64,000 nucleotides of DNA from a virus, in IMG/VR virus record IMGVR_UViG_3300025168_000049, positions 22,775 to 86,774 of that record. One strand, written 5' to 3'. Below are positions 278-36,264 of the stretch, one piece after another (within the stretch, counting starts at the first letter, position 1; every line of letters starts with the position of its first letter). The translations under genes were made by a program, and so were the position numbers. The notes beneath the pieces were generated by a model. That model made no database searches. It worked only from the letters and a program-made list of their open reading frames with translations, and was not told where the DNA came from.

Positions 278-3006
278 TGAATAGTGAAGGAGCTTTAAGT
301 TCAGAAGAAGCATTAGCAATTATTAAGTCTTCAATGTCTGGAGAATTAGAAATTCCTGCGCACAAAGCTATAGAACAAACAGCTTTAAAACAACAGCAAG
401 AATTAGTTGCGCAACAAGAAGAACAAGAACAGTCTCAACAAGGTCCAATGCATCAGATGCCTGATGGTAGCATGATGCCAGGCGAAACTCATGGTGAAGC
501 CCCACCCCCAGCTTTAGGAAAACTAGTACCTACATATACGAAAACAGGAGATCTTGTTAATTCAGGGGATTCACTTACACAAGGATTTAGTAATGCAATT
601 GGGACTCAGCGTGGTAATATAATTGGACAACAAGGAGAATATGCTCACGGTGGTGAGCATGAAGCTCCAGAGTTAGATGATATTGATTCTATTACATATG
701 AGGATGGAGGAATTTCACCACAAAATCAAAAGACAGAGTCTGCTAAGATAGCACGTAATTATGTAAATGTTAAAGGACAGTTATATCCAAATGCAGTAGA
801 TGAAGATGGGTTAATAGAAGATAAATCTAAATTTCCAGATGATAAGGCTTTTTCTATGTATAAGGAAGCTGTTTTAGAAACAGAAGGAGAAAGATTAACA
901 GGATATTTACCTAATAATAAATTTTCAGGTGTAACTGTCGGCAGAGGTTTTGATATAGGACAGTTTAGTACAAGGCAGATTAAAACAATGTTTTCTGATG
1001 ATAAGGTTTTAATGCACAAGTTGCTTCCATATGCAAATAAAAAGAAACCTGAACTAGACAAATCAAACATAAATGGTAAAAAACTAAAGATATCATCATC
1101 AGAATCTGAAAAAATAAATGAAACTTTATTTAATCAACAATGGTCTTCTATAAAAAGTTATACAAACGGTAAAGGAGCTACTGAAGATAATGTTAAAACA
1201 TTAATGCAATTAAAACATTGGTCTGGAGCTTTAGGAAATACATCAGGAAATTTAGCTCCTAAAGGAGAAAATCATATTTGGAAAGAAATCCAAGATGGTG
1301 ACTTTGATACACAAGAGTTATATAATGCAGTTATGTTTACCCGTGAGGATTTAGGTGAAAAAACTAAAGAGAATGAATGGAAATATAATACATTAAAAAA
1401 ACATCATACTAATTTAGGTAAACAAATGAAAGAAGTGCATGGTGAAAATTGGGAAAGTGGATTAGCAGTAACACCGCCTCATCCAGGAGAGTTTCTGATG
1501 AATATGTATAAAATGCAATTAAAAAATGGAGTATTAGATAGGCGAATAGAGCATAAATATAAAAGGTGGTTACATGAAGACTGGGATAAAGATGGTGATG
1601 GAATTCCTTTTAGTATAGACAAAAATGATCATCAACATTTTGAAAGAAAATTTGCAGAAGGTGGGGTAAGAAAGTATCATAATGGAGGTGAAGGGCCAGG
1701 GCATCCTCATGAAGAGGAAGAAATAAAGCCTGACGGATATACAACTACCAAAAAGTATAATAGCGGCAGGGTTACAACACATTCAACTTTTAATGATGAA
1801 AGTAAAAGAAGTCAGGGATCCGGATATGTTAGTGCAATACCGACAGATTCAGAAAATTATATATTAAATGCAGGAATGCTTCCTGAAGTAAATATAAAAG
1901 AAAAAGATCCTAGAAGTTGGGTAAAGAGAAACTACCAAAAGTATATAGCTCCAATAGGACATGGAGTATTAGATGTTGTAGGTATGATACCTGCAGCTGG
2001 AGAATTAGCTGATGGTATTAATGCATTATGGTATACTGCAGAAGGTAATTATGAGGATGCAGCTTTGTCAAGTGCAGCTATGATTCCATTTGCAGGATGG
2101 GCAGCAACTGCAGGTAAATGGGGAAAGAATACTATTAGAGCCATGGATAAAGTAACACCTGGAGGAGGAGGAATGTATCAACAATTAAGATATTTACAAG
2201 ACGTAAATCCTAAACTCGCTGGAGAGTTAGGAATTAAAAATAAGAAGCAGATAAAAAAGATGCTTAAGAATGACCCTGCTGCGGCACAAAAAATAATTGA
2301 TGATGCAAATGCAGGAAAAGTATTTGATGGTGGTAAAAAGACAAAGTATGTAGAACCTACAGTTGATGACTTTGGTAAAAAAGTTAATACTGATGACTTG
2401 CGTAGTACGGGTGATGATATTATAGATAATAGACTACTTGATACGCAAATTGATCCTGACTTAACATTTAGAAAATCTGCTTTTGATAGAACACATCCTA
2501 ACAGAGGTGGACATACATTTAGCGATATAGCAGGAGAATATACTTGGTTAGATAACGCATCTAAAATTGATAATCATGTTATTGCACCATTTAATCCAAA
2601 GTTTAATAAAGCTGGAGATATGACTTCTTTTGATTTACAGAAACTTGATGATTATGTGCCTTTTAGTTCACATAAAATGGAATTCCCTAATCTAAATAAT
2701 ACCGGTTTTAAAAATGATTTAACTCATACAATGAAAAATTTACAAAATAACGGGTTCCATCATATGGATATGCATGGTGGTAATATACTAGTAAAATCAG
2801 ATAATTTTGGTAAGATACTAGATTATAAAATTATTGATCCAGTAGGATACACTCATGACTTCCAAAAGTCAGAAATGTTTTTAAGGAATAATCCAGAATT
2901 TCAAGATTGGGATGGAATACTTAAGAATAGAAGTAGAGTTAATGATGATATATTTAGAATCCAAAATGAGATGAAACATGGTGGACTAAGAAGAAAACGA
3001 AAATAA
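277..3006 (+). CDS. 909-aa modular effector-like virion protein: pesticin-type muramidase + pre-toxin TG + atypical (RIO/Kdo/Bud32-like) kinase
   Basis: Muramidase motif EGERLTGYLP..SGVTVGRGFDIGQ (~883-963). PT-TG motif GHGVLDVVGMIPAAGELADGINALWYTAEGNYEDAALSSAAMIP (~1954-2118). Kinase motifs HHMDMHGGNILV (2758-2793) and KIIDP. Overlaps the upstream stop (TAATG). Confidence 0.7.
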   Translation: MNSEGALSSEEALAIIKSSMSGELEIPAHKAIEQTALKQQQELVAQQEEQEQSQQGPMHQMPDGSMMPGETHGEAPPPALGKLVPTYTKTGDLVNSGDSLTQGFSNAIGTQRGNIIGQQGEYAHGGEHEAPELDDIDSITYEDGGISPQNQKTESAKIARNYVNVKGQLYPNAVDEDGLIEDKSKFPDDKAFSMYKEAVLETEGERLTGYLPNNKFSGVTVGRGFDIGQFSTRQIKTMFSDDKVLMHKLLPYANKKKPELDKSNINGKKLKISSSESEKINETLFNQQWSSIKSYTNGKGATEDNVKTLMQLKHWSGALGNTSGNLAPKGENHIWKEIQDGDFDTQELYNAVMFTREDLGEKTKENEWKYNTLKKHHTNLGKQMKEVHGENWESGLAVTPPHPGEFLMNMYKMQLKNGVLDRRIEHKYKRWLHEDWDKDGDGIPFSIDKNDHQHFERKFAEGGVRKYHNGGEGPGHPHEEEEIKPDGYTTTKKYNSGRVTTHSTFNDESKRSQGSGYVSAIPTDSENYILNAGMLPEVNIKEKDPRSWVKRNYQKYIAPIGHGVLDVVGMIPAAGELADGINALWYTAEGNYEDAALSSAAMIPFAGWAATAGKWGKNTIRAMDKVTPGGGGMYQQLRYLQDVNPKLAGELGIKNKKQIKKMLKNDPAAAQKIIDDANAGKVFDGGKKTKYVEPTVDDFGKKVNTDDLRSTGDDIIDNRLLDTQIDPDLTFRKSAFDRTHPNRGGHTFSDIAGEYTWLDNASKIDNHVIAPFNPKFNKAGDMTSFDLQKLDDYVPFSSHKMEFPNLNNTGFKNDLTHTMKNLQNNGFHHMDMHGGNILVKSDNFGKILDYKIIDPVGYTHDFQKSEMFLRNNPEFQDWDGILKNRSRVNDDIFRIQNEMKHGGLRRKRK

Positions 3007-3069
3007 GTGTTATATAATAATAGAAACCTTAAAACAACAGAAGAGTATAAAAAATATGAATATATTTCG

Positions 3070-3077
3070 TACTTTTG
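3070..3077 (+). promoter_or_regulatory. Bacteroidota sigma -7 promoter element (TAnnTTTG)
   Basis: TACTTTTG in the intergenic gap, 28 nt before the scaffold ATG. No clear -33 TTTG. Confidence 0.55.
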
Positions 3078-3105
3078 TAACCTAAACCAATAAATATATA
3101 TAGAC

Positions 3106-4227: not shown

Positions 4228-4311
4228 GAAGGCAATTTATACTTGCAATAGTATTTTTACTATAATTACCCCCTGAACTGGGAGATAGGGGCCCATTAAA
4301 ATTTTAATGAA

Positions 4312-9390: not shown

Positions 9391-9399
9391 AAGTAAATT

Positions 9400-22917: not shown

Positions 22918-23625
22918 ATGACATTAAATGAAATAGCATACAACTTATTAAACCTAATTAGAGGAGGTAGATCTAATCACGATGAACATCTATCTTTAGA
23001 TCAGATTAAGTTTAATATTAAGCATTATCGAGCAATGTTCTTGCGTAGAGATTTTGCTAGAAATGGATTAACAACAAGACATGTAGAACAAGATTTAGGA
23101 TGTTTAGAAGTAGCTCCTGTAGACGCTTCTAGGTGTTGTAACTTGCCTATAGGATGTACAATTTATAAAACAAAATTGGAAGTTCCTAAAACTGTTAGAT
23201 TTAATTTCAGAGATGCTATTACATATATTGGTGATGTAACTGGTTTAGGAACTATTCCTATGGTGGAGCCACATATTGTGCAATGGTTACCATATGATAA
23301 ATATACAAATAAAAAAATGAAAGCATTTATGATAGATAATTTTATATATATACATAATGCTAAAGGTTTAGAGTACATAAATGTAAGAGGAGTCTTTGAA
23401 GACCCCGAAGATTTAAGGCTTTATAATTGTGGTACTGACGTCTGTTATGACGATAGTGCTACAAATTTTCCAATACCTATGGATATGATTCAAGCAATCA
23501 ATTCAGGTATTATATCTGGTGAATTAGGACTGCTTACTGGTTCATTTAGTGATTTAGAAAATGATAGGATGCAAGACGATAGAACTGTTAAAGGTATTGC
23601 ACCTCAACAAAATAAGCAACAATAA
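22918..23625 (+). CDS. Tail ring protein (crAss R2-like)
   Basis: MTLNEIAYNL, QIKFNIKHYRA, QDLGCLE, VRGVFEDP and FPIPMDM. Confidence 0.7.
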   Translation: MTLNEIAYNLLNLIRGGRSNHDEHLSLDQIKFNIKHYRAMFLRRDFARNGLTTRHVEQDLGCLEVAPVDASRCCNLPIGCTIYKTKLEVPKTVRFNFRDAITYIGDVTGLGTIPMVEPHIVQWLPYDKYTNKKMKAFMIDNFIYIHNAKGLEYINVRGVFEDPEDLRLYNCGTDVCYDDSATNFPIPMDMIQAINSGIISGELGLLTGSFSDLENDRMQDDRTVKGIAPQQNKQQ

Positions 23626-23653: not shown

Positions 23654-24439
23654 ATGGCAAAAGATGAATTTTACGGGAAAGGCTCTAAGCGCATAAGTGG
23701 CGACTTTTTGGAACCTAGTACCCCTGTTTTGTTTGAGGATGGCGGCGCCTCTGAAGATGAGACACGTAAGGAAATGCGAAGACGACAAAGAGAGGAGCGC
23801 AAAACCGCAAGGAAAAAAAGAAGATCTACTAGGAAAACAAGACGTCTAACAAAGAAAATAAACAGACGTAAGGAAAAAACTAAAAAGATTGAAGGTAAGT
23901 TAGAAACTCATACTGAGAAGACTCTAACAAAGAAAAAAGAGTATGCTCCAACTACAGAAGGAGATAAAAATACTCCACCTAAATCGGCTACAGAAACACC
24001 AGATGTTAAAAAGGATAAAAAGAATTCTAAAAGTATAGATAATATGTCTTTTAGTGAGGCTTACAGAACTCAAAGAGATGCTAATAAAAAAGCAGGTATA
24101 AAGCATTACGGAGATGATTCAGGGCATTTTACTTGGAGAGGTAAGGAATATAGTACGGAGTCAAAATCTGAGCAAGATAAAAGAAAAGGAAAAACTAAGA
24201 AAAAAGTAGTTAAAAAGAAAGAAGAGACACCGGTAGTAAAAGAAACAACTCCTAAGAAGAAACAAACTGTAAATCCAAAGCATGATCAAGACGGTAATGG
24301 TGTTCCAGATTTAGTTCAAAAACCTAAGACTCATGATGCAGATAACGACGGAATTCCAGATTTGATCCAAAGACGTGAGACAACAAAGATCAAGAAGAAG
24401 AAAGGTGGAATAAAGTACAAAAGAGGAGGAAGAAGATAG
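23654..24439 (+). CDS. Basic Lys-rich putative internal virion protein with GG tags
   Basis: FEDGG near the N-terminus and KKKGG-IK-YKRGG at the C-terminus. Also an FSEAY...FTWRGKEYST motif and two DxDxxGxPD repeats. Confidence 0.55.
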   Translation: MAKDEFYGKGSKRISGDFLEPSTPVLFEDGGASEDETRKEMRRRQREERKTARKKRRSTRKTRRLTKKINRRKEKTKKIEGKLETHTEKTLTKKKEYAPTTEGDKNTPPKSATETPDVKKDKKNSKSIDNMSFSEAYRTQRDANKKAGIKHYGDDSGHFTWRGKEYSTESKSEQDKRKGKTKKKVVKKKEETPVVKETTPKKKQTVNPKHDQDGNGVPDLVQKPKTHDADNDGIPDLIQRRETTKIKKKKGGIKYKRGGRR

Positions 24440-24922
24440 ATGTTACATACTTTAAAGGCAATCTATGACGATTATCAGATAAAGTATGACGATAGCATTG
24501 ATGCAAAAACTTTTAGAGACATTTGCTCTGACTATAATATGATAGTCATGAGCAATGTCTTAGAAGGTAAAACATTCAATATGGGCTATAACTTATCTTC
24601 TATATATATAGTTAGAGTAAGAAGAGATCCTAGGACTCCAAGAATAGATTGGGGAGAGAGTAATAAGTATAGAGATGAACTTATTAAAAAAGGTTTGCCT
24701 TTGTATGATAATATTACAGAGAAAGGTAGAAAATGGTATATATATTATACAGATGATTTTTATTGTAAATACCATTGGAACAAAGGTAAATGTAAGATCC
24801 CAAATAAGTCTGTTTATAGATTTGATGCTACACGAGGGGTTAAAGGAAATAAGGGAAAATTAATAACTTTGTTGCGTAAAGATGATTTAGCGTATTTAAA
24901 GTTTAAAAAATATAAATTATGA
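24440..24922 (+). CDS. IHF/HU-like crAss tail-module protein
   Basis: RIDWGES and YCKYHWNK...YRF; sits between ring genes as in crAss-like phages. Confidence 0.6.
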   Translation: MLHTLKAIYDDYQIKYDDSIDAKTFRDICSDYNMIVMSNVLEGKTFNMGYNLSSIYIVRVRRDPRTPRIDWGESNKYRDELIKKGLPLYDNITEKGRKWYIYYTDDFYCKYHWNKGKCKIPNKSVYRFDATRGVKGNKGKLITLLRKDDLAYLKFKKYKL

Positions 24923-25797
24923 TTTATAAAACTATATCTAGCAAGACAATTATTAGAAAGGTTTTTAGAGATTTAAAACCTAATGATGATAATTGGATAG
25001 ATGATGCTATTGAGTGGATAGGAGAGGCATTAGAGCATATAGGTTCTGCACCACAACTGTGTACTAAACAATGTGTCTTAACTGTAAAAGATCATAAAGT
25101 ATGTTTACCTGCTGACCTATATTATATCAATCAAGTCGCAGTTAATAATACAGTATCTCCTACTACATCTGAAGAGTTAGATACTTTATTAACTCAAGTT
25201 AAAACATTATCTGCATCTGTTGTTGCAGCTACGGCTGCAGGGCAAGATTATAGTGATACAGGAAAAGTCCTTAATGAAATAAATGCTAGAATTGTTGTTT
25301 TAGAAAATGTTTTCTTTTCTGATGAACATAAACTAAGAGCATTACAATATGGTGCAAGTACATTTCATAAAAGCATGCATTGTACAGGATGTGTAAACGA
25401 ATTATCAGAGTATAAGGATAGTTATATAGTAGATTGTGGGTATATTAAAACCTCATTTCAAACAGGAAAAATCTGTATAAGTTATATGGCTTTTCCTCTA
25501 GATGAAGATTGCTTTCCATTAGTACCAGATGATATAAGTTTTAAAGAAGCAATGTTTTGGTATATATTTAAAAAATTATTATTATCAGGTTATGATAAAC
25601 CTACTAAGATAGACTATGCTTTTGCAGAAGAGAGATGGATGAATTATTGTACACAAGCTAGAAATGCAGCTAACTATCCAGATATTGCAAAGTATGAATC
25701 GTTTATGAATCAATGGGTAAGATTAGTTCCAAATATAAATAGACACTCGACGTTATTTGAAGATTTAAATGACAGAGAACAATTAGATAGAGGATAA
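24919..25797 (+). CDS. Tail tubular / ring protein 1 (P22 gp4-like)
   Basis: EWIGEALEHIG, YIKTSF..GKICISY.AFPLDEDCFPLVPD and W..YCTQAR; directly before the muzzle gene. Confidence 0.75.
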   Translation: MIYKTISSKTIIRKVFRDLKPNDDNWIDDAIEWIGEALEHIGSAPQLCTKQCVLTVKDHKVCLPADLYYINQVAVNNTVSPTTSEELDTLLTQVKTLSASVVAATAAGQDYSDTGKVLNEINARIVVLENVFFSDEHKLRALQYGASTFHKSMHCTGCVNELSEYKDSYIVDCGYIKTSFQTGKICISYMAFPLDEDCFPLVPDDISFKEAMFWYIFKKLLLSGYDKPTKIDYAFAEERWMNYCTQARNAANYPDIAKYESFMNQWVRLVPNINRHSTLFEDLNDREQLDRG

Positions 25798-28700
25798 TGG
25801 CCAATAAAAGATTTTTAAAAGGATTATTCAAAGATACTAGTCATCAAGACCAGCCTAAAGATTCTTGGAGATATGCAAAAAATGCTACTATAAATAATAT
25901 AGAAGGCTCTATTTCTAACGAATCTGGTACTACTGCACACGGGCATCTTGGAACAAATTTAACCTGGGGTGCTCAAGAAGATAGAATCTTGGGAACTGTA
26001 GAAGTTGATAATGATAGAGTAGTTATATTTACTAAGAATCAACTTAACTTAAGAAGCGAGATTGGTATATGGGATCCTAATACAAGCGTAGGTAATCCAT
26101 ACTCAGCTTTATATAATCCTAACATAACTAGTTATGTAACACACGATTTAAATTTTCAGTTTACCAATTTAATAGAAGGAACTTATAAGATTGATGCTAA
26201 AGGAGATTTAGTTGTTTATTTTACAGATGATTTAAATCCACCTAGGGCAATTAACATAGACCGTCAAATGCGAGGGATAGCATTATCTAATATTACTTGG
26301 TTATATAACATTAATCCTGCTAGTTCACATTCAAAACATTTAGAATTATTAAATTTATTTCCAGCATCTGGTCCTGTTCCTCATATTTATCTTTCTGACC
26401 AGTGGTGGTTTCCTAAACCATATCAGACGTCTGTTGTTGAAGGGGGTGGATTAAAAACAGCAGTATACTATTTAGCTTTAGCTTATGTAGATGAAGACTT
26501 AGTTGCGACTAATTTTTTAACTGTTTCTAATCCTGTTTCAATTGTAGATGAGTATGATCACACTAGGCCTACTAGTAAAAAAGACGGTGCTAAAGAGGGT
26601 ACTCAAACATCTAAAGCTATATCATGGAGAGTTAGTAATCTGAATACAGATTATAAGTTTATGCGACCTGTAGTTGTTAGGCGTATGGGAGATTCGACTG
26701 AGGCTTTTAAATTAAATGATATACAAATAAATCCTAATACTTCAAATCCTCCATTTCAAACTGTAGTATTTAGTGGTATAGAAGGTAGTAGCGGACTAGC
26801 TATTGAAAAAGTTATTATAGATACTACATCTTATGATACTGCAAAAACTATTGATCAGTTAGATGGTATTTTATATTTAGGAAATACAACTAGTAATAAG
26901 GATTTAGGATATCAAAAATATGCTAATGCAATTAAAACATTTTCTGTTGTTAGGGATATACCAAAATTTGATGAGCATTGGATGACCATGGATAGTCTAA
27001 CTACAGGGAATGCTTTTTTCCCAGTTGATGATGGTAATTATGTAGATGATTCTAAATCATATAGACATCATCCAAATATTGTAGATCATAAAGGATATCA
27101 AAGAGATGAGGCTTATGCCTTTTATATTGCATTTATTATGAATGATGGTAGTATGTCTTATGCATATCATATACCTGGACGAGAAAAAAATATATCTACT
27201 GACCCAGCTTTTCATACTGAAGGAGATGCTGTTTCTTCTGCATCAGTAGGGAATACTCAAATTTTTTCAGATTTAGCGGACTTAAGTAAAGGTCACGCTC
27301 AAAACTTTCATTTCTTTGATTACAGTCAATACGCAGGAAATAGAAATATGAACTTTTGGGAAAATGCTACAGAGACTTATCCAGATACAGATAACTATGA
27401 AGTGTGGGATGAAAATGGTTATACAGGAACTGACATTAAAAATGAAAGGGTTCGTCACCACCATTTTCCTGGTAATGATAATGACAACAGATCCTCAATT
27501 AGTGATGACACATGCACGTCGCAGGAGTCTGATGGTGTAGGATCAAATAACACACCTTGGAATGGTACTGTTGAATTTAGACATAATGATGATGGGTGTG
27601 AAATGCATTGGAATGAAGGATCTTGGAGATATGCAAATATGGGTAATTATGTAAATATATCTGATCCTGATGGTACTAACGCTCAGATGTTACAGGCTCT
27701 ATTTAGAAGCAAATCTGATACAGGAGGATTTGGTTCAGGATGTAATAACACTGGTGGTACTTGGAATGGTAATTATATAGTAGCAGATCAAAAAATGACA
27801 GTAAGAAGTTGGGCTATGATTAATCATAGAAGACTAAGTAATGGTGGTTCTGCTCCACTTACTACTACTAAGTATAGTACTAATTCTGTTGCTAGCCCTG
27901 TAGCTGAAGGGGCAGCAGGTACTAGTCCAGGATGTCCTGCAACTTCCTGTGATTCAATAGGTGATTATGGGGGTTGTGGTGGTAGTGGGACGCTTGATTA
28001 TACAGCTATGTCTTTACCAGCTACTGTTTTAGAGCCAGGCGAGTGGATACGAATGAGAAATTGTGGAGATGGTTGGTGTAATGTAGGTGGTCAATCAGGA
28101 GGAACGGATTGTAGATTTAGACAGGCTAGAGGAAGTAGTGAGCAAATAGATGCGTGTGACGCAGGGTGTTCTAGTCCTAGCAGTGCTCCATGGAGTTGCA
28201 ATGATTACCAGTTTATTAGATGGGAAATTGTATCAGCTAATTCTGTTGCGCCTGGCTTTGTAAAATATGATGCAAAGATATCACATACTGTTAGAAGACT
28301 AGGATTTACTCTAGAGGATATAAAGGTACCTAAATCTATAGCAGATAAAGTTCAAGGATTTAGAATTTATTATGCTAAGCGTGGGCAATCTAATAAAACA
28401 ATTATTGGACAAGATTCAATAATACCTATGACACGAAAACTTGTTCAAATGGGTATCTGCCTAGAAACAGGTGGCACAGCAGAAGCATATCAAGTTATGG
28501 GTACGTTGCAAAACTTCCCTGAAACATTCTGGCAATGCGAGTCTATGGCTTATGCATCGTGGCATCCAGGATATCCTATATATACTTATGGAATATACCA
28601 AAACTCTACTACACTAGCTACTGGAGAAGCTGCATATAAAAACTTTACTTTTCACGATTTTAATTTGTTGAGAACAAAAAATAGTTTAGCAGGTGCAACA

Positions 28701-31481
28701 CATATTAAACCACAATGGAGAGTTAGAAATTTAGTATGGAATGGTCCTACAGTTAATCAAGATAAACGAATGAATACTAGATTAACTAGCGCTCCAGGAG
28801 CAGGAACAGATCCTATTGAAATAAGAGAAGAATGGGGATGGGAAACAGACTTTAATTGCTATCCAAGAGATGTAGCCTCTTCTATTCATGCAGGTGCAGA
28901 CTATGCTAATTATAGTAGATATGGAGGTAGCTACCTTCCTCCAAGAGTACTAGGACAAAAAGCTAAATCGTACTTAATGGGCGATACTATTTTTAGAGGA
29001 GCATCTTTAGGTTTTGGAGGTAAAGTATTTAATGAGTTTGGTGAAAGTTGTATGATCTTTTCTTTAATGGATAGACACGAGTTTCGTGCAGTTGATTTAA
29101 CTAACAGGCCTACATCCTCAGCTGGTTGGAATTCAGGATACGCAGCACCTAATAACTCTGCTGCGGTTGAAGGATTTGGAAATATTGAAAGAGTTAATCC
29201 TGGAGACAATGGTCCAATACTTGTAAACCCTTTACCTTGGGGATCTTATGATGGAACTGGTGGATATAATCAATTATCACATGACAGTAGCGGATCTAGA
29301 AGTCAAAGTATGATAGTTAATTTACATGCTTTTAAAACTGATGTTTATAAATCTATTGACAGTAATAAATTAGTATGGACAGGATTTGAAGTATTGGGAC
29401 AGCAGTTTAAGAATTTCATTTTCTGGGATGATGCTAATCACCCTGAAGCACCAACAGGTACTATTGCAGGAGATCCTATGGTTGCTACTATAAAAGAATT
29501 GTTACCACCATATACTCCAGTTAGTAATACAGCAAATTACTCTGTAGCTGATTTACAGTCTACGTTATATCAAGGAACTTCAAACCATATAAAGTCTGGT
29601 ATATATGGAGGAGACACCTATATATGCAGATATGGTAAAGCATTAGCTGTTAAACCTAGTAACATAGATGAGAGTTCATTACCTAAAAGATCTATCCATT
29701 ATCAAATAGTAGAAAGTTGTGATAATATTAACTTTAGACATACTGACTCTGATAAAAATTTATACTATCCAGGATCTATAGCAAAAGAAATTATACGATA
29801 TGTTGGTAGTGAAGATGGAGATTTTACACATTTTGATAACATGAGGTATAACGATAACTATTCTGCAGTTAATGACATCAGACCAGCTTTTCCATTACCT
29901 TTAGAAGAAAACAATCAAACAGATTTTCCAACTAGAACGCATAGAAGTGCTAAGTCAGATAATACTAGTTTGATAGATAATTATAGAATCTTTTTAGGAA
30001 ATCAATTTAAAGACCTTCCTAGAGATAAAGGAGATTTATGGAAGCTATCTACTTTTAATAATTTATTATACTTCCACATGGAAGATACTTTATATGTAAC
30101 TAAAGGTAAACAAAAGATGCAGCTCTCTGGTGGATCAGATGCTTTTGTAGGAAGTGGAGATATTTTTGAACAGGCTCCAGAAGAGATTGTGCACACTAAA
30201 GATGGATATGGAGGAACTCAATCAATTAGAGCAGCACTTGTTACACGTAGTGGGTATTTCTTTGTAGATGCTGCCGCTCGTAAAGTGTTCTTAATGAAGG
30301 AAAATTTAGTCGAGTTGAATGATGTAGGTATGGAACAATGGTTTAAAGATAATATTAAATTTGCTCTAGAAGACTTTGGTTTAAGTACTGTTGCTGATAA
30401 TCCTCTTATGGGATTTGGATTTCATTCTGTATATGATCCTAAATTTAAAAGAATATTATTAACTAAAAGAGAGTATGTACCTACACAACTTTTTATAGAT
30501 GGGTTCAATTCGATTGCCTCTATCCCTCCAAGTTATGGAACAGTAAGATTTAACGTTAATTCACAAATGTTTGAGCAGTTTGCAGCTTGTGCCTGCGGTA
30601 CTTTTCCAAGTTGTTACGATTGTTGGGCTACTATAGAGTGGGAGAATGAATCTTATTTCTACAAAGGTGGTTGGACAATATCTTATTTTCCTGAATTAAA
30701 TATCTGGGTTAGCTTCCATGATTATGTACCTTATCATTATTTTAATACTACTTTTAATTTTTATTCAATAACAGATCAGTATCCAAATTTAATTGGTGGT
30801 CTTGGTGGTCTTGTTACTACTTTGGGAAGCTCTGCTATATGGAAACATCACAGCGGTTTAAAAGGATTATACTACCAAGAAAATGATATAGGAACTATAC
30901 CTAACTGGGCAGATAATATAACTATATCTCCTTTTGAGATTGAGTATATAGAAAATGAATTAAGAGAAGCTGATGGATTATATTCCAGTATAACATATAA
31001 TGCAGAAGTCTGGAATGACACTGCAACAGATCTAAATATACAAGGAGTTAATGTACTAGAACATGGATTTACTAGTTTCTTTGTATACAATACACATCAA
31101 ATATCTGGGACTGAAACATCAAGTCCATTAGAATATTTGATAAATACAAGGCGTGTAGGTACTGATTGGAAGATAAATCAATTTAGAGACTTAGCAGCAA
31201 TAGGTGTTTCAACTGCAGCATACTATACTGCTACCGGGGTCAATGTAACTGGAGGAACAAATGTTGGAACTGTAACAACAAGTGCTATAACTCCTATGTT
31301 TGTAGTAGACGGTATGAGTGAACTACCAAACGCAAATTATATAAATTTAAACAAAATATGGCAAGAACAGAAGAAATTTATAGACAAATGGTTAGGAATT
31401 CGTTTAATATATGATAATATAACAAATAATTCCGTACATTTGTACACTAGTTCTGTGGCTGTAAGAAAATTCTATAGATAA
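25797..31481 (+). CDS. Tail stabilisation / muzzle protein (P22 gp10-like)
   Basis: YFTDDLNPPRAIN, GGDTYICRY, GYGGTQS, GYFFVD, YDPKFKRILLTK and WTISY...WVSFHDY.P. Confidence 0.8.
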   Translation: MANKRFLKGLFKDTSHQDQPKDSWRYAKNATINNIEGSISNESGTTAHGHLGTNLTWGAQEDRILGTVEVDNDRVVIFTKNQLNLRSEIGIWDPNTSVGNPYSALYNPNITSYVTHDLNFQFTNLIEGTYKIDAKGDLVVYFTDDLNPPRAINIDRQMRGIALSNITWLYNINPASSHSKHLELLNLFPASGPVPHIYLSDQWWFPKPYQTSVVEGGGLKTAVYYLALAYVDEDLVATNFLTVSNPVSIVDEYDHTRPTSKKDGAKEGTQTSKAISWRVSNLNTDYKFMRPVVVRRMGDSTEAFKLNDIQINPNTSNPPFQTVVFSGIEGSSGLAIEKVIIDTTSYDTAKTIDQLDGILYLGNTTSNKDLGYQKYANAIKTFSVVRDIPKFDEHWMTMDSLTTGNAFFPVDDGNYVDDSKSYRHHPNIVDHKGYQRDEAYAFYIAFIMNDGSMSYAYHIPGREKNISTDPAFHTEGDAVSSASVGNTQIFSDLADLSKGHAQNFHFFDYSQYAGNRNMNFWENATETYPDTDNYEVWDENGYTGTDIKNERVRHHHFPGNDNDNRSSISDDTCTSQESDGVGSNNTPWNGTVEFRHNDDGCEMHWNEGSWRYANMGNYVNISDPDGTNAQMLQALFRSKSDTGGFGSGCNNTGGTWNGNYIVADQKMTVRSWAMINHRRLSNGGSAPLTTTKYSTNSVASPVAEGAAGTSPGCPATSCDSIGDYGGCGGSGTLDYTAMSLPATVLEPGEWIRMRNCGDGWCNVGGQSGGTDCRFRQARGSSEQIDACDAGCSSPSSAPWSCNDYQFIRWEIVSANSVAPGFVKYDAKISHTVRRLGFTLEDIKVPKSIADKVQGFRIYYAKRGQSNKTIIGQDSIIPMTRKLVQMGICLETGGTAEAYQVMGTLQNFPETFWQCESMAYASWHPGYPIYTYGIYQNSTTLATGEAAYKNFTFHDFNLLRTKNSLAGATHIKPQWRVRNLVWNGPTVNQDKRMNTRLTSAPGAGTDPIEIREEWGWETDFNCYPRDVASSIHAGADYANYSRYGGSYLPPRVLGQKAKSYLMGDTIFRGASLGFGGKVFNEFGESCMIFSLMDRHEFRAVDLTNRPTSSAGWNSGYAAPNNSAAVEGFGNIERVNPGDNGPILVNPLPWGSYDGTGGYNQLSHDSSGSRSQSMIVNLHAFKTDVYKSIDSNKLVWTGFEVLGQQFKNFIFWDDANHPEAPTGTIAGDPMVATIKELLPPYTPVSNTANYSVADLQSTLYQGTSNHIKSGIYGGDTYICRYGKALAVKPSNIDESSLPKRSIHYQIVESCDNINFRHTDSDKNLYYPGSIAKEIIRYVGSEDGDFTHFDNMRYNDNYSAVNDIRPAFPLPLEENNQTDFPTRTHRSAKSDNTSLIDNYRIFLGNQFKDLPRDKGDLWKLSTFNNLLYFHMEDTLYVTKGKQKMQLSGGSDAFVGSGDIFEQAPEEIVHTKDGYGGTQSIRAALVTRSGYFFVDAAARKVFLMKENLVELNDVGMEQWFKDNIKFALEDFGLSTVADNPLMGFGFHSVYDPKFKRILLTKREYVPTQLFIDGFNSIASIPPSYGTVRFNVNSQMFEQFAACACGTFPSCYDCWATIEWENESYFYKGGWTISYFPELNIWVSFHDYVPYHYFNTTFNFYSITDQYPNLIGGLGGLVTTLGSSAIWKHHSGLKGLYYQENDIGTIPNWADNITISPFEIEYIENELREADGLYSSITYNAEVWNDTATDLNIQGVNVLEHGFTSFFVYNTHQISGTETSSPLEYLINTRRVGTDWKINQFRDLAAIGVSTAAYYTATGVNVTGGTNVGTVTTSAITPMFVVDGMSELPNANYINLNKIWQEQKKFIDKWLGIRLIYDNITNNSVHLYTSSVAVRKFYR
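31435..31442 (+). promoter_or_regulatory. Bacteroidota -7 element upstream of the cargo genes
   Basis: TACATTTG 43 nt before ATG 31486. Context CGTACATTTGTA nearly equals CGTACTTTTGTA at 3068. Confidence 0.5.
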
Positions 31482-31485
31482 AATT

Positions 31486-32856
31486 ATGACAAAAATAAAA
31501 AAATTAAAGACCGCTGTTGCGTATAAAAGTAAGTATGCCCTAGGAGGCAAGTTAGAGAAACCAAAAATGAAAAAGAGCAAACGTAAGTTTGTGGCAGGTG
31601 GATCTCAATACGATCAAAACACTATTAGTGCTTTTCAGAACCCTAACTATACAGGGAATATAGTAGCTCAAGGTACTCAAGAATCTGCAGATGCGGCTTC
31701 AGAACATTTTGATTCAGAGGCTGAAAAACTAAAAACTTCATCAGAGACAATGGTTAACGAGATGAAAAATGAAGATGAGCAAACTAAACAAAGACTTATA
31801 CAAGAGGATGCAGCCAACAAACAAAAACAAAATGCAGTTGAAAGCACTGCACAAACGGCTGCACAAACTATAACTGAAGGATATAAAAAGTTTGCTCCTA
31901 ACAGTGCTACTGCAAAAGAAACAAAAGGAGATGGTATTGGTGGACTAGTTGGTTCTATTGGACAGGCTAGAAATCAATGGAAAGCTATAGGAGATGCTAA
32001 AAAGGCTGCTAAATTTGCAAAAGGTTTTAATGAAACTAAAACTGCCTTTGATGTTGGACAAAGATTATCAATGGGAGAGGATGCATATAAGCTGTCTCAA
32101 AGCATGAAGAATGTATCAAATATGAAAACTACTCTAGATCAAACTAAAGTAGGAATGAATATGTTTGATAAAGGTAGTAAAGGTTTAGATATGTTAAATA
32201 AAGGTAAGGATGCTGGTGATGTATTTAAAAAAGGAACAGAACTCGCTAGTACAATGGATAAAACAACGGGACTTTTAAAACTAGGAGAAAAAACACAAAA
32301 ATTAAGCACGATGAGTAAAGTTGGTACAGCTGCTAAAACAGTAGGGGCTGGTGTCAAATCTTTTGCTACTTCGGCTTCAGGGCTAGGTCTTATAGCAAAT
32401 TATGCAGGAAAAGGAATAAGCAAGTTATCTGATGATGGGGATCCTACTAAATCTAACTTTGGAGAATATGCTGGAGCTGCTTTATCTACTGCAGGATCTT
32501 GGGCAGGGACAGGAGCAATGATTGGATCAGTAATACCTGGTATTGGAAATGCTGTTGGAGGAGCTGTTGGGGCAGTTGCAGGAGCTCTCTATGGTGTAGG
32601 AAAAACATTTTTTGGTACTAGAAAAGCTAAACGTGCTAAGGCAAAAGCAGATCAGCAAAGAGCTGAGAAAGTGGGTGCGTATAATGAAAAATTAAAAGGA
32701 AGATTTGGACATGCTGCACAATCAGCTAGAGCTATGGAGATTAAATCAAAAACAACCTCTGGACAAGATTTAGGGTGGGATACAACAAGATCTAGATATG
32801 GAGGAATTAGAAAAGAATATGGGGGGCAACGACAAATACCAGCATACGCTGCATAA
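31486..32856 (+). CDS. Cargo/ejection protein 1-like with glycine zipper
   Basis: GAMIGSVIPGIGNAVGGAVGAVAGALYG membrane hairpin; follows the muzzle gene; GG tags at both ends. Confidence 0.65.
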   Translation: MTKIKKLKTAVAYKSKYALGGKLEKPKMKKSKRKFVAGGSQYDQNTISAFQNPNYTGNIVAQGTQESADAASEHFDSEAEKLKTSSETMVNEMKNEDEQTKQRLIQEDAANKQKQNAVESTAQTAAQTITEGYKKFAPNSATAKETKGDGIGGLVGSIGQARNQWKAIGDAKKAAKFAKGFNETKTAFDVGQRLSMGEDAYKLSQSMKNVSNMKTTLDQTKVGMNMFDKGSKGLDMLNKGKDAGDVFKKGTELASTMDKTTGLLKLGEKTQKLSTMSKVGTAAKTVGAGVKSFATSASGLGLIANYAGKGISKLSDDGDPTKSNFGEYAGAALSTAGSWAGTGAMIGSVIPGIGNAVGGAVGAVAGALYGVGKTFFGTRKAKRAKAKADQQRAEKVGAYNEKLKGRFGHAAQSARAMEIKSKTTSGQDLGWDTTRSRYGGIRKEYGGQRQIPAYAA

Positions 32857-32868
32857 AATACTACGACT

Positions 32869-35800
32869 ATGAATAGAAGATTTATAAATAAACTAAGAAA
32901 TAAATATGCTACAGGAGGAGAACTAATGACTAACTCTATGGATCCAGCTCCAATGGGACAACTAGAAGAATCTAGCACAGTTCCTTATGGGTCAGTACCT
33001 ACTTATGAAGCACAAGGAAATAATGTTCCTAAACCACCATCTACAACAATGGCACCAGTTACGGGTGGAACAGATCCTAAAGTGTTAAAAGCAGAGAGAG
33101 ATAAGTTAGCTCTTATGGATGAAGCAACACTTCGTGCATATTATACAGAGATGTATACTAATCAAGTAACACCTGTAATACCTTTTGGTCAAACTAGATT
33201 TAGTAATGATCCAGGATATGGCCAAGGGAGTACTAGATTTAACTATTCCCACACACAAGATAAGAGTGCATTTAATAATATTTATACTTTGACAGATTAT
33301 GATCCGACAAATGAAGGAGAGCAAGATGTTAATGTAAGGAATATAGATGCTGCAAATTATATATATGGTAATACAACTGATGGGTTAATAGCTACTACTA
33401 CTAAATTTGAGGAAGACAGAACGACACAGAACGCTGCTAATGCTTTATTAGACGGAGATGAAAAAGAAGCTGACCGTATTACTACTAATCAGGTTAACAG
33501 GACTATAATTAATGATCTAATAAATCAGAAAGGCTCGTATTACGAGGAAGGTTGGACTATAGGAGATGGAGGTAAGCCTGTACCACCTGTAAATCAAGGT
33601 CAGTTTAACAGAGACCTTATGCGTGAAGAAGCTGAATCTTGGGAGAAAGAAAAAAATCGTCTTATAGAGGCAGGTATAATGGGAGACGGATCACAGCCTG
33701 TAGTTATAGAAGACGATGCTAAGTTTAATGTAGCGGCACTACCAATGGTTGTAGCATCAGGTGTATTTGCCGCAGGGCAGTGGGGTCTGAATCCTGCAGC
33801 TGACGCCCTGTTTTTAGAATCTTTAGTTTTGGCAGGAATATCAACTATAACTTATAAAGAGTTGCAGGGGATGTATAAAAATTATCAAGAAGGTGCGACA
33901 ATGCAGAGGACTATAGATGCTCATGGTAAACAAATGGAAATTGATTTTGGGGCATCAGCTTCTACTGCTACTTCTGCAGCAGGAAGTCATCCTAATGGAC
34001 CTGAATATGACCCAAAGAAAGATCCGGATAAAAGTAGAGCTGCTAAATTTGCTGAAGCTGTAAAAAAGTGGGGAAAGAATGCTGGTAAGCTAGTTTGGAA
34101 TAAATATACTAGGAAATTTGGGATTTATGTTATAGTTGGGGGTACAGGAAGGTTTATATATGAAGTAATTAAACATGGCGGAATAGGTAATACACCTGAT
34201 GGTCAAAATAGAAATGATAAAAAGAAAGAGAAAACTCTAGATAATGATGAATGGATAGCAAATCCAGCGGACCCATCTGGATGGACATTAATGAATCCTG
34301 CAACAGGTGATATATACGATAAACGTACTGGGAACCATTTCACTAAAGATGGAGAACCTATAAAGAATAGAGGACAGAACTATGAATTTGGCGGGTCTAG
34401 AAATACTCTAGATAGAATGCGTCAATACTCAAGAGGAGGCGAGGCTTTACCAGGAGGTATGATGGAATCAATACCAGGTTCTGATGCTGTAAAATTTAAT
34501 GGTCAAACTCATGAAGAAGGAGGAATAGAATTAGATTCTAGAACAGAAGTAGAAGACGGGGAAACTATGGATAAAGTTAATATGAGTAAGGGAGGTCCTT
34601 CAGACTATTTCTTTTCTAAAAAATTAGGATTCGCTGATAAGCATGAGAGACTACTAGCTAATGGAGGTAGTCAAACTGATATCAATTACTTAGCTAAAAT
34701 GCAAGAAAAAGCTGCTGGGAGAAATCCAAGTAAAATTGCCGCAGAATATGGGGGAGTTAGAAAATTTGAAGAGGGAGGAGCAAATAGAAAAACAGATAGA
34801 CAATATGCATACGGAGAAGATTATACAGAGAATGTAGGAGGAGCACATGGAGAGGCAGGATACACAGGACTGGGATCTGACGGATCTTATACTCCAACTG
34901 ATCCAGGAGAAGAAGGATACGCTAATACACAATCTTCAATAGGAAAAAAAGGAAATAACTATTGGGGAGATAAACATATTATGTCTGATGAAGGACGTAA
35001 AGATTTCTACAATAGAAATAAAAATATTTTAAATGGTATGGATATTAATAGTTGGGAAGATTACGACCCAGCTAAACATGCAGGAGATTTCCAAAAAGCA
35101 TTTAACACAGATTTAAAAGAACGTTATAATAAAGACGAGAACTTACGAAACAGTTTAAAAAGTAGAGGGATTAATAGTGTTGAGGACTTTACACAACAGG
35201 CTGGATTTCATAATAAAGGTCATAAATCTAAACGATTAGATAATGCTCATGGAGAATACACATGGAGTAGAACCTCTGCATATAATGAGCCAGAAGATAA
35301 AGAAATAATCCCACCAACAGACGACGGAGGAGGGGACGAGGAAATTACTACAACAGATTTAAAGGTTCAAAATCAAAAAAAAGGCTTTAATTTGTTAGGG
35401 GCCGCACAATTAATACCTGCAGCTATGGCATTTATGGATAAACCTGATTACATGGAATCTCCTGATTTAGTTGCTCCTGGTATTGTTGTTCCTGAACGAA
35501 TATCTAAAACACATTTAGAAAGAGTAAATTATAATAATCAAAGAGATAAAGAAGATAGAAACTACCAGGGACTAAGACAAGATATCAATACAAGTGGTAT
35601 AGGAGGAGGTAGTGCGATGTCTAACAGATTAGCGGCATATGCAATGTCAGAAGCAAACCAAAGAAAAATTGATGCTGATGAATCTAATGTAAATGTACAA
35701 ATTGGGAATCAAGAAGGTACTATGGACCAACAAAGAAAAGGAGAAAATGCTAGTAACATGTTATCAGCTAGTACTACTAATGCTAGTAACTACTTAGATG

Positions 35801-36264
35801 CAGACAAAACTAATGCTAAGAATGCTATGTATGTAGATGAATTTAATTCTGCAGCAGATGCAGCTACATTTGATAGAAAATTAGATGCTGTACAATCTGG
35901 TGTACAAGGTGTAGCAGGTATGTGGAATGACCAACAAAATAGAAATACACAAGAGCGTATAGCTTTTGCTGAAGCAGGTAATAGAGGAACCTATGAGAGA
36001 GAAAGAGCTAAGTGGGACTCTAAAAATGAGAGTGAAAGATTAACCGCTTCTAATAGTAGTACTTCAGAAAGCAGTACTTCAACTACTAAACGTACTTTTG
36101 TAACAGGAGCAGATGGCACTAAATATTGGAGTGACGGAACTTCAGAGAAACCTGGCAGCGCAGAAACAGGCGGGCCAAGGTATAATACAGAGTTTAAAAA
36201 ACGTTTAGCTCGTAAAGGAGGTGTTCATGAAGGTTCTGCTTCGTGGAAAAGAATGTTTGGATAA
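32869..36264 (+). CDS. Cargo/ejection protein (1131 aa), GG-punctuated
   Basis: crAss-type GQTHEEGGI...EVEDGE motif, hydrophobic hairpin, NAxN 11-mer repeats and about 8 xxGG tags. Confidence 0.6.
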   Translation: MNRRFINKLRNKYATGGELMTNSMDPAPMGQLEESSTVPYGSVPTYEAQGNNVPKPPSTTMAPVTGGTDPKVLKAERDKLALMDEATLRAYYTEMYTNQVTPVIPFGQTRFSNDPGYGQGSTRFNYSHTQDKSAFNNIYTLTDYDPTNEGEQDVNVRNIDAANYIYGNTTDGLIATTTKFEEDRTTQNAANALLDGDEKEADRITTNQVNRTIINDLINQKGSYYEEGWTIGDGGKPVPPVNQGQFNRDLMREEAESWEKEKNRLIEAGIMGDGSQPVVIEDDAKFNVAALPMVVASGVFAAGQWGLNPAADALFLESLVLAGISTITYKELQGMYKNYQEGATMQRTIDAHGKQMEIDFGASASTATSAAGSHPNGPEYDPKKDPDKSRAAKFAEAVKKWGKNAGKLVWNKYTRKFGIYVIVGGTGRFIYEVIKHGGIGNTPDGQNRNDKKKEKTLDNDEWIANPADPSGWTLMNPATGDIYDKRTGNHFTKDGEPIKNRGQNYEFGGSRNTLDRMRQYSRGGEALPGGMMESIPGSDAVKFNGQTHEEGGIELDSRTEVEDGETMDKVNMSKGGPSDYFFSKKLGFADKHERLLANGGSQTDINYLAKMQEKAAGRNPSKIAAEYGGVRKFEEGGANRKTDRQYAYGEDYTENVGGAHGEAGYTGLGSDGSYTPTDPGEEGYANTQSSIGKKGNNYWGDKHIMSDEGRKDFYNRNKNILNGMDINSWEDYDPAKHAGDFQKAFNTDLKERYNKDENLRNSLKSRGINSVEDFTQQAGFHNKGHKSKRLDNAHGEYTWSRTSAYNEPEDKEIIPPTDDGGGDEEITTTDLKVQNQKKGFNLLGAAQLIPAAMAFMDKPDYMESPDLVAPGIVVPERISKTHLERVNYNNQRDKEDRNYQGLRQDINTSGIGGGSAMSNRLAAYAMSEANQRKIDADESNVNVQIGNQEGTMDQQRKGENASNMLSASTTNASNYLDADKTNAKNAMYVDEFNSAADAATFDRKLDAVQSGVQGVAGMWNDQQNRNTQERIAFAEAGNRGTYERERAKWDSKNESERLTASNSSTSESSTSTTKRTFVTGADGTKYWSDGTSEKPGSAETGGPRYNTEFKKRLARKGGVHEGSASWKRMFG

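Follow-up and report, generated by a model that had tools for sequence, protein, structure and literature searches.

What is one short diglycine peptide doing in four different proteins of the same virus genome? The question is raised by the window analysed here, a stretch of 64,000 nucleotides (positions 22,775 to 86,774 of IMG/VR record IMGVR_UViG_3300025168_000049) from a marine crAss-like phage, in which a first-pass annotation had picked out a recurring tag and suggested that it loads cargo into the capsid or marks sites of protein processing. Judged by sequence comparison, K-[Y/F/M]-x-x-G-G is a conserved short linear motif of four virion-module proteins, and we think, with a probability of about 0.5, that it acts as an uncut flexible hinge and docking tag which also provides the joint for module exchange. 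We found no published description of such a Gly-Gly seam motif in the literature. The genes that carry it are as follows:

277..3006, + strand: modular protein of 909 aa, encoded immediately downstream of the portal gene (791-aa ORF)
23654..24439, + strand: 261-aa protein, strongly basic (30% Lys+Arg), occupying a variable slot within the group of ring genes
31486..32856, + strand: 456-aa protein, probable glycine-zipper/transmembrane N-terminal part of cargo protein C1
32869..36264, + strand: 1131-aa protein, orthologue of C1 (crAss001 gp45) by hhalign, fold match and gene order

Is the motif more than chance?

Every motif instance listed in the first-pass annotation lies where it was reported, and its claim that the tag is non-random in these four proteins is borne out by counting. 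Against residue shuffles of each protein, [FYM]xxGG occurs 5 times in the 909-aa protein (0.8 expected), twice in the 261-aa protein (0.07), twice in the 456-aa protein (0.64) and 5 times in the 1131-aa protein (1.28), which together makes 14 copies against 2.8 expected (Poisson p ~1.5e-6), while the remaining 31 ORFs are at chance level with 8 against ~10.6. No copy is present in the MCP, Ring 1, the C2-like protein or either of the giants flanking the RNA polymerase (RNAP), and the muzzle and RNAP have one each, as chance predicts. When the entire 86,774-bp genome is scanned in six frames, the doubled form, GG-[VI]-[RK]-K, appears only at the four reported positions, in agreement with the earlier remark that MCP, ring, muzzle and RNAP lack it.

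Hundreds of relatives, and the gut phage crAss001, have the same peptide at corresponding positions. In relatives it is enriched 4-5 fold in the portal-adjacent gene and in the small basic genes among the ring genes, with 173 motifs against 40 expected in the portal-downstream genes of 80 related loci and 187 against 34 in the 261-aa slot of 69 loci, where small Lys-rich modular proteins are found; in the related loci, as here, enrichment is confined to these gene slots. Across 150 family representatives, no two more than 50% identical, we counted 629 motifs against 142 expected. Neither a frequency at the level of composition nor a loss of position in homologues was seen.

The sequence logo reads Lys at -4, Tyr at -3, Lys or Gln at -2, then GG, a hydrophobic residue at +1 and basic residues at +2/+3, and since residues on both sides of the GG are constrained, the motif resembles a binding peptide or a hairpin. 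Distances from one GG to the next cluster at 6-8 residues, where they are 4-8 times as frequent as expected, and echoes follow at ~15 and ~22. All four synonymous Gly codons are used within motifs, which points to selection on the peptide and not on the DNA.

Which proteins carry it?

The best understood carrier is the 1131-aa protein, in which the following elements can be recognised:

32869..32919, + strand: N-terminal tag (aa 1-17), a basic amphipathic stretch followed by KYATGG
34381..34440, + strand: YEFGG and YSRGG, which flank and cap the portal-binding domain on its N-terminal side
34432..34734, + strand: portal-binding (CARG1-type) domain, aa ~522-622, AlphaFold2 pLDDT >90, with invariant columns
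34741..34779, + strand: doubled AEYGG-VRK-FEEGG, directly after the portal-binding domain
36157..36222, + strand: AETGG (36157) and ARKGG (36208), near the C-terminus

On profile, predicted fold and gene order, this protein is the orthologue of C1 (gp45). A 41-sequence profile of its family aligns with gp45 439-546 in hhalign (probability 91.7%, E 7.7e-7), and VIA-align superposes its domain on 7qog_M with Z 8.0, an rmsd of 2.2 A over 78 residues and 31% identity, the next match reaching Z 4.2; Foldseek alone missed this fold match, and the Pfam PF25725 model matches one of the 41 family members, at an E of 0.0067 that lies below the curated cut-off. The core domain is widespread, with 828 representatives in a 50%-identity protein library. 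Its gene lies downstream of the muzzle and upstream of the C2 and RNAP genes, which fits the C1 slot of the crAss001 map, the order here being Ring2, 261 aa, 160 aa, Ring1, muzzle, 456 aa, 1131 aa, C2-like and RNAP-type giants:

22918..23625, + strand: tail ring protein 2 (Pfam CrAss_Ring_2 1.5e-35), without the motif
24919..25797, + strand: tail ring protein 1 (Pfam CrAss_Ring_1 8.6e-55)
25797..31481, + strand: putative muzzle protein, 1 motif (chance level); Pfam crAss_MUZ (3e-34) matches one of 42 scanned ORFs and is assigned to this one by position, size and 70 homologues
36276..38930, + strand: C2-like cargo protein, without the motif
45206..52624, + strand: virion RNA polymerase-like protein with DYDID at aa 1475, motif at chance level

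Within the 1131-aa family the tag holds its position closely. The N-terminal consensus, M-F-R-K-K-F-I-D-K-L-R-K-K-Y-Q-x-GG, is present under a loose pattern in 101 of 127 representatives (80%); in its 69 strict copies, which most often begin at residue 14, position -4 is Lys in 81% and position -3 is Tyr in 86%, and the full tag occurs 23 times at N-termini and never internally. Just after the portal-binding domain xxxGG is found in 137 of 142 representatives (96%), in doubled form in 114 of the 142 (80%). The AEYGG-VRK-FEEGG region is predicted to be disordered (pLDDT <50), as are the flanks generally, and the domain between them is predicted with confidence. The idea that tags mark termini and module borders therefore stands in general, with positions kept in homologues, and fails for MSKGG (34582), which like HEEGG and LANGG lies inside the portal-binding domain and belongs to the conserved fold elements, not to the seams.

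The 456-aa protein, whose termini are both predicted to be disordered, has these copies:

31534-31548 and 31588-31602, + strand: YALGG and FVAGG
32791-32826, + strand: C-terminal SRYGG-IRK-EYGG

Probably it is the split-off N-terminal part of C1. Its family aligns with gp45 116-170 in hhalign (probability 77%, E 2e-5), over 54 columns that are of low complexity, and pairwise BLAST gives no significant match; support for the link comes from at least 8 related loci in which a 456-like part and C1 are fused into one gene. GG38-39 and GG439-440 are nearly invariant among 12 homologues at ~30% identity. The four cargo proteins had been called unrelated, and two of them thus look like the halves of a single protein.

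What does C1 look like in crAss001? There gp45 (Pfam PF25725 crAss_CARG1; PDB 7QOG chain M) likewise follows the muzzle gene and shares the portal-binding domain, a glycine-zipper/basic N-terminal part, an aromatic-x-x-GG near residue 17 and a C-terminal GG-basic tail. What differs is that C1 is here divided between the products of two genes (456 and 1131 aa), both of which have an N-terminal tag, that the motif is more regular and often doubled, and that extra modules are present. The first gp45 copy is at 17-21; those at 205-210 and 260-264 frame the barrel-bound helix 214-245, and those at 424-428 (NAFGG) and 558-563 frame the portal-bound domain 425-552. These two segments, connected by 179 residues in the authors' model of the structure (Bayfield et al. 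2023, PMC10172136), place C1 on both sides of the portal.

The remaining two carriers are more variable:

640-654 and 697-711, + strand: YAHGG and YEDGG, closing the conserved N-terminal module of the 909-aa protein
1651..1689, + strand: doubled FAEGG-VRK-YHNGG, 909-aa protein
2971..3003, + strand: C-terminal tail MKHGG-LRRKRK, 909-aa protein
23732-23746, + strand: FEDGG, 261-aa protein
24395-24436, + strand: doubled C-terminal KKKGG-IK-YKRGG-RR, 261-aa protein

The conserved N-terminal module of the 909-aa protein ends at YAHGG, three homology segments stop at aa 125-129, and the payload beyond differs among relatives, whose equivalent module closes with QPGQ-Y-[KE]-x-GG. Here the payload includes a pesticin/T4-lysozyme-like muramidase (aa 199-299; Pfam Pesticin 1e-11, phrog_24780) and a weak kinase-like match below cut-off (Pfam ABC1 E 0.008). 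Relatives with quite different payloads also end in xGG and a basic tail, which in gut phages reads [FY][RK]CGG[KRH][KR][KR].

What might the motif do?

Three forms can be distinguished: an N-terminal tag, in which K-Y-x-x-GG comes after ~13 basic, putatively amphipathic residues; internal seams, in many cases doubled and with their GG pairs separated by 7-8 residues, that would bracket folded or docking modules such as the C1 portal-binding domain; and C-terminal GG with basic tails. In our preferred account each copy would have two jobs, serving as a flexible hinge that closes one module and opens the next, and as a small docking or packing element in which aromatic and basic residues surround a Gly-Gly turn. 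A hinge alone cannot account for copies at the very ends of a protein, which connect nothing, and it is for this reason that a recognition role must be added. crAss-like phages would store the motif-bearing proteins along the portal-tail axis and eject them first, hinge and docking together allowing extended storage like beads on a string, and a pull through portal and tail with the N-terminus leading. The present data show the motif, its enrichment and conserved positions, its disordered context, the exchange of modules at seams and the orthology to C1; that the motif remains uncut, and what it would bind, we infer.

With one and the same peptide at the borders of every module, the seams become sites at which modules and genes can be inserted, deleted, fused or split, and this is what relatives do, exactly at the tag joints: 456-like and C1 parts are fused directly at a doubled motif, or are separated by extra modules each framed by YQxGG. 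The earlier suggestion of swappable modules is well founded in this respect, and the tag does mark proteins whose slots are those of virion-internal or ejected proteins, and these slots are enriched in relatives too. As a general capsid-loading signal it does not work, since packaged RNAP-type proteins and the C2-like protein lack it. The latter probably starts at ATG 36276 and not at GTG 36243, matching the conserved N-terminus of its relatives from Met12, and its 32 homologues have 4 motifs against 6.1 expected.

Could the motif be cut?

The strongest competitor, which we nevertheless regard as unlikely, holds that an unrecognised phage or host maturation protease cuts after Gly-Gly, removing the N-terminal leader and C-terminal tails and releasing the modules, with C1 yielding tail-resident and portal-resident pieces. 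The syntax does look like GG-directed processing of the kind known from adenovirus protease sites and double-glycine leaders, the N-terminal copies lie a leader-like 13-21 residues from the start, and the genes that are separate here are fused into one, meeting at the motif, in crAss001 and in at least 8 related loci, as a cleaved polyprotein would also lead one to expect. Moreover, segments of crAss001 C1 are found to either side of the portal, 12 C1 chains in the portal tunnel at once would be a tight fit that cutting would relieve, and processing is predicted for packaged polyvalent proteins and shown for P1 DdrB (PMC5512222).

Against this, Pfam and the best 25 of 60 PHROGs families reveal no peptidase family among genome ORFs of >=90 aa, a search that covers recognised phage-encoded families, and HExxH is missing from every six-frame ORF of >=60 aa and from all 196 motif-bearing proteins of 62 related loci, which tells us that the zincin-like domains mentioned in the first-pass annotation are absent. 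The ordered chain of 7qog_M starts at 425/426 and is continuous through Gly427-Gly428, so that this single crAss001 joint is uncut in virions. Tandem arrays with 7-8-residue spacing would release useless octapeptides, residues after the GG are constrained as well, and the crAss001 structure paper (PMC10172136) mentions neither the motif nor cleavage. The proposed maturation-protease site is accordingly disfavoured. A broader version, slightly less probable again, would make the C1-type proteins of all Crassvirales polyproteins that an unrecognised phage or host protease processes at GG into tail-resident and portal-resident pieces and effector modules; if true, it would explain how one product reaches both sides of the portal with no need for 12 chains to thread the tunnel. 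In a weaker variant, the strictly N-terminal 13-residue helix and GG tag would correspond to the unassigned 14-residue muzzle-bound helix of crAss001.

Improbable, in our view, is that the Lys-rich aromatic-GG repeats are nucleic-acid-binding or condensing boxes like RGG or AT-hook-type elements, which would neutralise or organise DNA round the cargo zone, or hold cargo as a dense phase, the position at module borders being secondary. It would suit the extremely basic context (30% Lys+Arg in the 261-aa protein, with similar small Lys-rich proteins in relatives), the periodic, multivalent repeats in disordered segments, and the conserved 160-aa gene that adjoins the 261-aa slot and takes the place of an HU/IHF-like gene of crAss001. 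However, the copies keep strictly to fixed positions with respect to the portal-binding domain and the N-terminus, which a structural address explains better than general charge, and copies in acidic context exist (YEDGG, FEDGG, FEEGG). Very improbable indeed, and largely refuted by the conservation data, is a by-product without function of its own, from low-complexity linker composition or recombination scars: the glycine content of the proteins is high (7-12%) and the motif falls in disordered regions, but composition-preserving residue shuffles give 4-5x fewer copies, the N-tag keeps its Tyr -3 (86%) and Lys -4 (81%) across representatives <=50% identical, GG columns are nearly invariant at 30% identity, and conservation at the DNA level is absent. 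The thought that GG-ended fragments act as ubiquitin decoys finds no support, no ubiquitin-like fold preceding any motif copy.

How does it compare with known systems?

Adenain, the adenovirus protease, cuts (M/I/L)-x-G-G|x in basic core and cement precursor proteins, and ASFV pS273R cuts GG|x. Their substrates resemble the proteins described here in having GG-ending peptides near the termini of very basic virion-internal proteins. They differ in that no clan-CE or other peptidase was found in this phage (Pfam; best 25 of 60 PHROGs families), that the hydrophobic residue is here at -3 from the first Gly and not at -2, that the motif forms tandem periodic arrays, and that one orthologous joint is uncut in crAss001. 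The internal proteins of phage T4 have a capsid targeting sequence removed by the prohead protease gp21 at L/I-x-E, also a short N-terminal tag common to otherwise unrelated packaged proteins; we know of no prohead protease here and found none, and the largest cargo, the RNAP, is without the tag. Double-glycine leaders, which are cut by C39 peptidase-ABC exporters and have an acidic/hydrophobic consensus, share the ~15-20 N-terminal residues ending in GG, whereas the present tag is basic and K/R-rich (K-Y-x-x-GG) and departs from that consensus; by Pfam and the best 25 of 60 PHROGs families the genome has neither an ABC exporter nor a C39 domain, and its tagged proteins are intracellular parts of the virion.

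Also comparable are the polyvalent proteins of phages and conjugative elements, which are packaged, injected and assembled from numerous exchangeable modules (Iyer, Burroughs, Anand, de Souza, Aravind 2017, PMC5512222). The 909-aa protein, as read from its sequence, may similarly join a muramidase to further modules that vary among relatives, although polyvalent proteins have proposed self-processing zincin-like metallopeptidase domains that are lacking here; neither 'linker' nor 'glycine' occurs in the main text of that paper. As a separate observation on the 909-aa gene, a DxDxDG stretch resembling a calcium site lies 5' of FAEGG-VRK-YHNGG.

What are the proteins that carry the motif?

The window belongs to a single-contig crAss-like phage genome of 86,774 bp, whose major capsid protein is no more than 33% identical to that of any phage record. 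The features needed here, including the four proteins with the glycine-glycine motif (K-[FYM]-x-x-GG, scored as [FYM]xxGG), are as follows.

277-3006: 909-aa motif protein
4312-5760: major capsid protein (Pfam Crass_capsid, 5e-81)
22918-23625: Ring 2
23654-24439: 261-aa motif protein
24919-25797: Ring 1
25797-31481: muzzle protein (a crAss_MUZ match in one of 42 ORFs scanned, placed on this ORF by position, size and 70 homologues)
31486-32856: 456-aa motif protein
32869-36264: 1131-aa motif protein

The 909-aa gene lies directly downstream of the portal gene, the 261-aa gene has Ring 2 on one side and a 160-aa gene, itself conserved, on the other, and 3' of the muzzle gene come the 456-aa and 1131-aa proteins, one that is C2-like and then three giants; of these giants the second has an RNA-polymerase-type DYDID motif. 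This order agrees with the map of Bacteroides phage crAss001, in which gp44 is the muzzle, gp45 and gp46 are the cargo proteins C1 and C2, and gp47, gp49 and gp50 are RNAP-associated (PMC10172136).

The first-pass annotation regarded the four proteins as unrelated, but two of them are probably halves of C1. The core of the 1131-aa protein (aa ~520-640) aligns with crAss001 gp45 439-546 (hhalign probability 91.7%, E 7.7e-7), and its AlphaFold2 model, with pLDDT above 90 over aa ~522-622, superposes in an exhaustive aligner on PDB 7QOG chain M at Z 8.0 (rmsd 2.2 A, 78 residues, 31% identity), the runner-up reaching Z 4.2. Foldseek with the core-domain model against the PDB, and a search of PDB sequences with a profile of the core alignment, each returned zero matches. 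Judged from profile and predicted fold, the core is homologous to C1's portal-bound domain (gp45 425-552). The 456-aa family in turn aligns with a glycine-zipper and basic segment, gp45 116-170 (probability 77%, E 2e-5), and a 456-like part and the C1 core share one gene in at least eight related loci, which together make the two proteins the probable halves. As a whole the 456-aa protein models poorly (AlphaFold2, mean pLDDT 45), with its motif-bearing termini predicted to be disordered. For the C2-like gene the listed start, GTG 36243, makes it overlap the C1 gene; ATG 36276 is the likelier start, since from Met12 the N-terminus matches the conserved one of its relatives.

In the 909-aa protein Pfam recognises a muramidase domain of the pesticin/T4-lysozyme kind at aa 199-299 (1e-11); an ABC1-kinase-like match (aa 816-853, E 0.008) is weak and below cut-off. 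Relatives share pieces of this protein only (the N-terminal module, aa 560-674 and aa 625-748), so its payload is highly mosaic.

How widespread is the motif, and what is conserved?

Every motif instance reported by the first-pass annotation was found in place, and when the entire genome was scanned in six frames the doubled form, GG-[VI]-[RK]-K, turned up at its four reported sites only. With shuffled versions of each protein as the baseline, [FYM]xxGG occurs five times for 0.8 expected in the 909-aa protein, twice for 0.07 in the 261-aa, twice for 0.64 in the 456-aa and five times for 1.28 in the 1131-aa protein, summing to 14 versus 2.8 (Poisson p ~1.5e-6); the remaining ORFs sum to 8 versus ~10.6. 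The motif glycines use all four synonymous codons, so the conserved entity is the peptide and not a DNA repeat; as glycine and flanking codons vary freely, the seams, our name for the motif's positions between modules, are not explained by a repeat or a recombination signal in the DNA, and that reading was rejected. The 909-aa and 261-aa proteins each have DxDxDG calcium-site-like stretches a short way upstream of their doubled motif (DWDKDGDGIP; DQDGNGVPD, DADNDGIPD; window 1582-1630 and 24284-24361), and small basic proteins of the 261-aa type in relatives carry EF-hand-like FPDxNKDGxITxADI modules.

Searched by tblastn against 50,697 phage records, by a word-based protein search and by a viral-contig scan, the 1131-aa protein found only itself; relatives were gathered through Ring 1 (69 viral contigs, 43-73% identity) and the portal (80 further). 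In these, the small basic genes among the ring genes hold 187 motifs versus 34 expected, the C1-like genes 145 versus 47.5 and the portal-downstream genes 173 versus 40; the portal, capsid, Ring 2, exonuclease and C2-like genes stay at or below expectation. The logo reads Lys(-4), Tyr over Met/His(-3), Lys/Gln(-2), any residue, two glycines, a hydrophobic residue(+1) and basic residues(+2, +3), and the spacing of successive GG pairs has a sharp peak at 6-8 residues, where counts reach 4-8 times those expected, and echoes at about 15 and 22.

Position is conserved too. When a profile of the 1131-aa core was run against 1.84 billion library proteins, clustered at 50% identity, it drew 828 representatives (E up to 0.001), the best 150 of which carry 629 motifs versus 142 expected. 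Among these best 150, a loose pattern places the N-tag (some 13 basic amphipathic residues, then K-Y-x-x-GG, at the protein start) in 101 of 127 complete C1-type proteins. Strict N-tags (n=69) start modally at residue 14, with Lys(-4) in 81% and Tyr(-3) in 86%; their consensus is close to the first 17 residues of the window's 1131-aa protein, and the full tag is confined to N-termini (23 versus 0 internal). A GG peptide directly follows the domain in 137 of 142 representatives, doubled in 114. In the 456-aa family (12 sequences, ~30% identity) few columns are almost invariant, and the glycines of FVAGG and SRYGG belong to them. Portal-downstream genes share a conserved N-terminal module of ~100 residues that always closes with QPGQ-Y-x-x-GG (YAHGG being the 909-aa protein's copy); however their payloads differ, the proteins finish with xGG and a basic tail.

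The same motif occurs in gut CRASSVIRALES: crAss001 gp45 has FDTGG at 17-21, FSAYGG (205-210) and FAEGG (260-264) bracketing the barrel-bound helix 214-245, NAFGG (424-428) and MFAYGG (558-563) bracketing the portal-bound domain 425-552, and a basic C-terminal tail, EYTGG...KAKGG. A like pattern is seen in p-crAssphage gp47/gp48, crAss002 gp30, cr3_1 gp20/gp21, IAS virus gp060 and DAC17 gp54, and the gut proteins include [FY]-[RK]-C-G-G-basic C-termini. The motif is therefore order-wide, so that the original observation not only stands but extends to the whole order; its interpretation is supported in part. A literature search gave no description of this Gly-Gly motif and nothing relevant to it.

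Is the peptide a joint, a tag or a cleavage site?

We favour, at a probability of roughly 0.5, the reading that the motif is an uncut hinge and docking tag which doubles as an evolutionary joint between modules. Where relatives have the two parts fused, the C-terminal module of the 456-like part directly adjoins the C1 core at a doubled motif (...KYGG-Y-YQMGG-VQLPGG...), and further relatives insert one or two modules there, each bordered by YQxGG. Ring-cluster proteins likewise reshuffle small modules in varying combinations between MYKKGG joints; these include GLWxNI...GSG, EF-hand-like FPDxNKDG stretches and GGRFAAMV...GRKKYGKS, and one recurs in a 456-like protein. The proposal that tags sit at module boundaries succeeds for the 1131-aa protein, where 51% of 126 internal homology boundaries fall within 8 residues of a motif versus 9% at random (p 0.0015), but the 909-aa and 456-aa proteins gave no significant result. 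MSKGG, listed in the first-pass annotation, and its neighbours HEEGG and LANGG are conserved elements of the core domain's fold and not seams.

The strongest competitor, that the GG peptides are cut, we consider distinctly less probable. It would account for the leader-like N-terminal copies and for equivalent split and fused genes meeting at the motif; processing is predicted for packaged polyvalent proteins and shown for P1 DdrB (PMC5512222), and twelve C1 chains having to traverse the portal tunnel is awkward unless they are cut. However, the ordered C1 chain of crAss001 begins at 425/426 and continues straight through Gly427-Gly428, the authors of that structure describe 214-245 and 425-552 as linked by 179 residues (PMC10172136), and tandem arrays spaced at 7-8 residues, together with constraint before as well as after GG, are less like a scissile site than like an element that binds or forms a turn. 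Nor is there an obvious enzyme: Pfam and PHROGs, among the matches listed for ORFs of at least 90 aa, gave no peptidase family. A zincin-like protease domain has been described for some crAss-like phages (bioRxiv 10.1101/2020.03.07.982082), but none is available here: HExxH is absent from every six-frame ORF of 60 aa or more in the genome, as it is from 196 motif-bearing proteins of 62 related loci. Searching also for HxxEH and HExxxH yielded no zincin, the sole HxxEH being a motif-adjacent HGGEH with no Pfam domain there. The gel and MALDI data for crAss001 (PMC6235969 and supplements) do not give a gp45 band size. At the site where the literature puts the zincin-like domain (phi14:2 gp65 orthologues), adjoining the RNAP, is a 2090-aa protein (38934-45206) with no HExxH and no Pfam match.

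A role in binding or condensing DNA is unlikely, and absence of any function very improbable. In 69 related loci the slot between Ring 2 and Ring 1 holds small, extremely Lys-rich proteins built from a few recurring mini-modules (N-terminal KRKDGSYSKRGLWDNIRANKGSGK, GGRFAAMV..GKSEESAKAIAAS.GRKKYGKS and a C-terminal YKxGG-FLEPxxxxLD end), which could be internal DNA-associated proteins.

What does the tag mark, and why does it matter?

The motif had also been proposed as a signal for packaging into the head. The packaged RNAP-type proteins and C2 lack it, so it does not serve loading in general; crAss001 C2, gp49 and gp50 are without it as well. On sequence grounds, what it marks is a putative class of proteins that are kept along the portal-tail axis and leave the particle first, made up of C1, the protein next to the portal with its muramidase, and the ring cluster's small basic proteins. 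The RNAP-associated cargo protein gp47 of crAss001 (27120-34145) is motif-rich, with four [FYM]xxGG versus 0.84 expected, and in this differs from gp49, gp50 and the RNAP-type proteins of the window.

No phages of the human gut are more abundant than Crassvirales, which are common in the sea as well. The crAss001 structure leaves the loading, ordering and ejection of their large protein cargo as a question, for which the motif is a concrete handle, framing the portal- and barrel-bound segments of C1 and tagging, from marine to gut phages, the N-termini of the proteins ejected first. It also supplies a simple rule for splitting otherwise unannotatable mosaic proteins into modules, and may explain how phages exchange payload modules.

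The ejected proteins of phage T7 show no enrichment of [FYM]xxGG; T7 gp6.7 (865-1131) ends ...SAFGGKK and gp13 (9308-9724) ends ...TITKGG, which may therefore be coincidence. A copy of the 1131-aa protein in the database, 1112 aa long from another start, is recorded on a 303,891-bp contig, which greatly exceeds the 86.8-kb genome in length and may be a concatemeric or chimeric assembly. A pooled Pfam scan of the genome outside the window and of the window's minus-strand genes found a spore-photoproduct-lyase-like radical SAM protein, a SET-domain protein and a 2OG-Fe(II) oxygenase.
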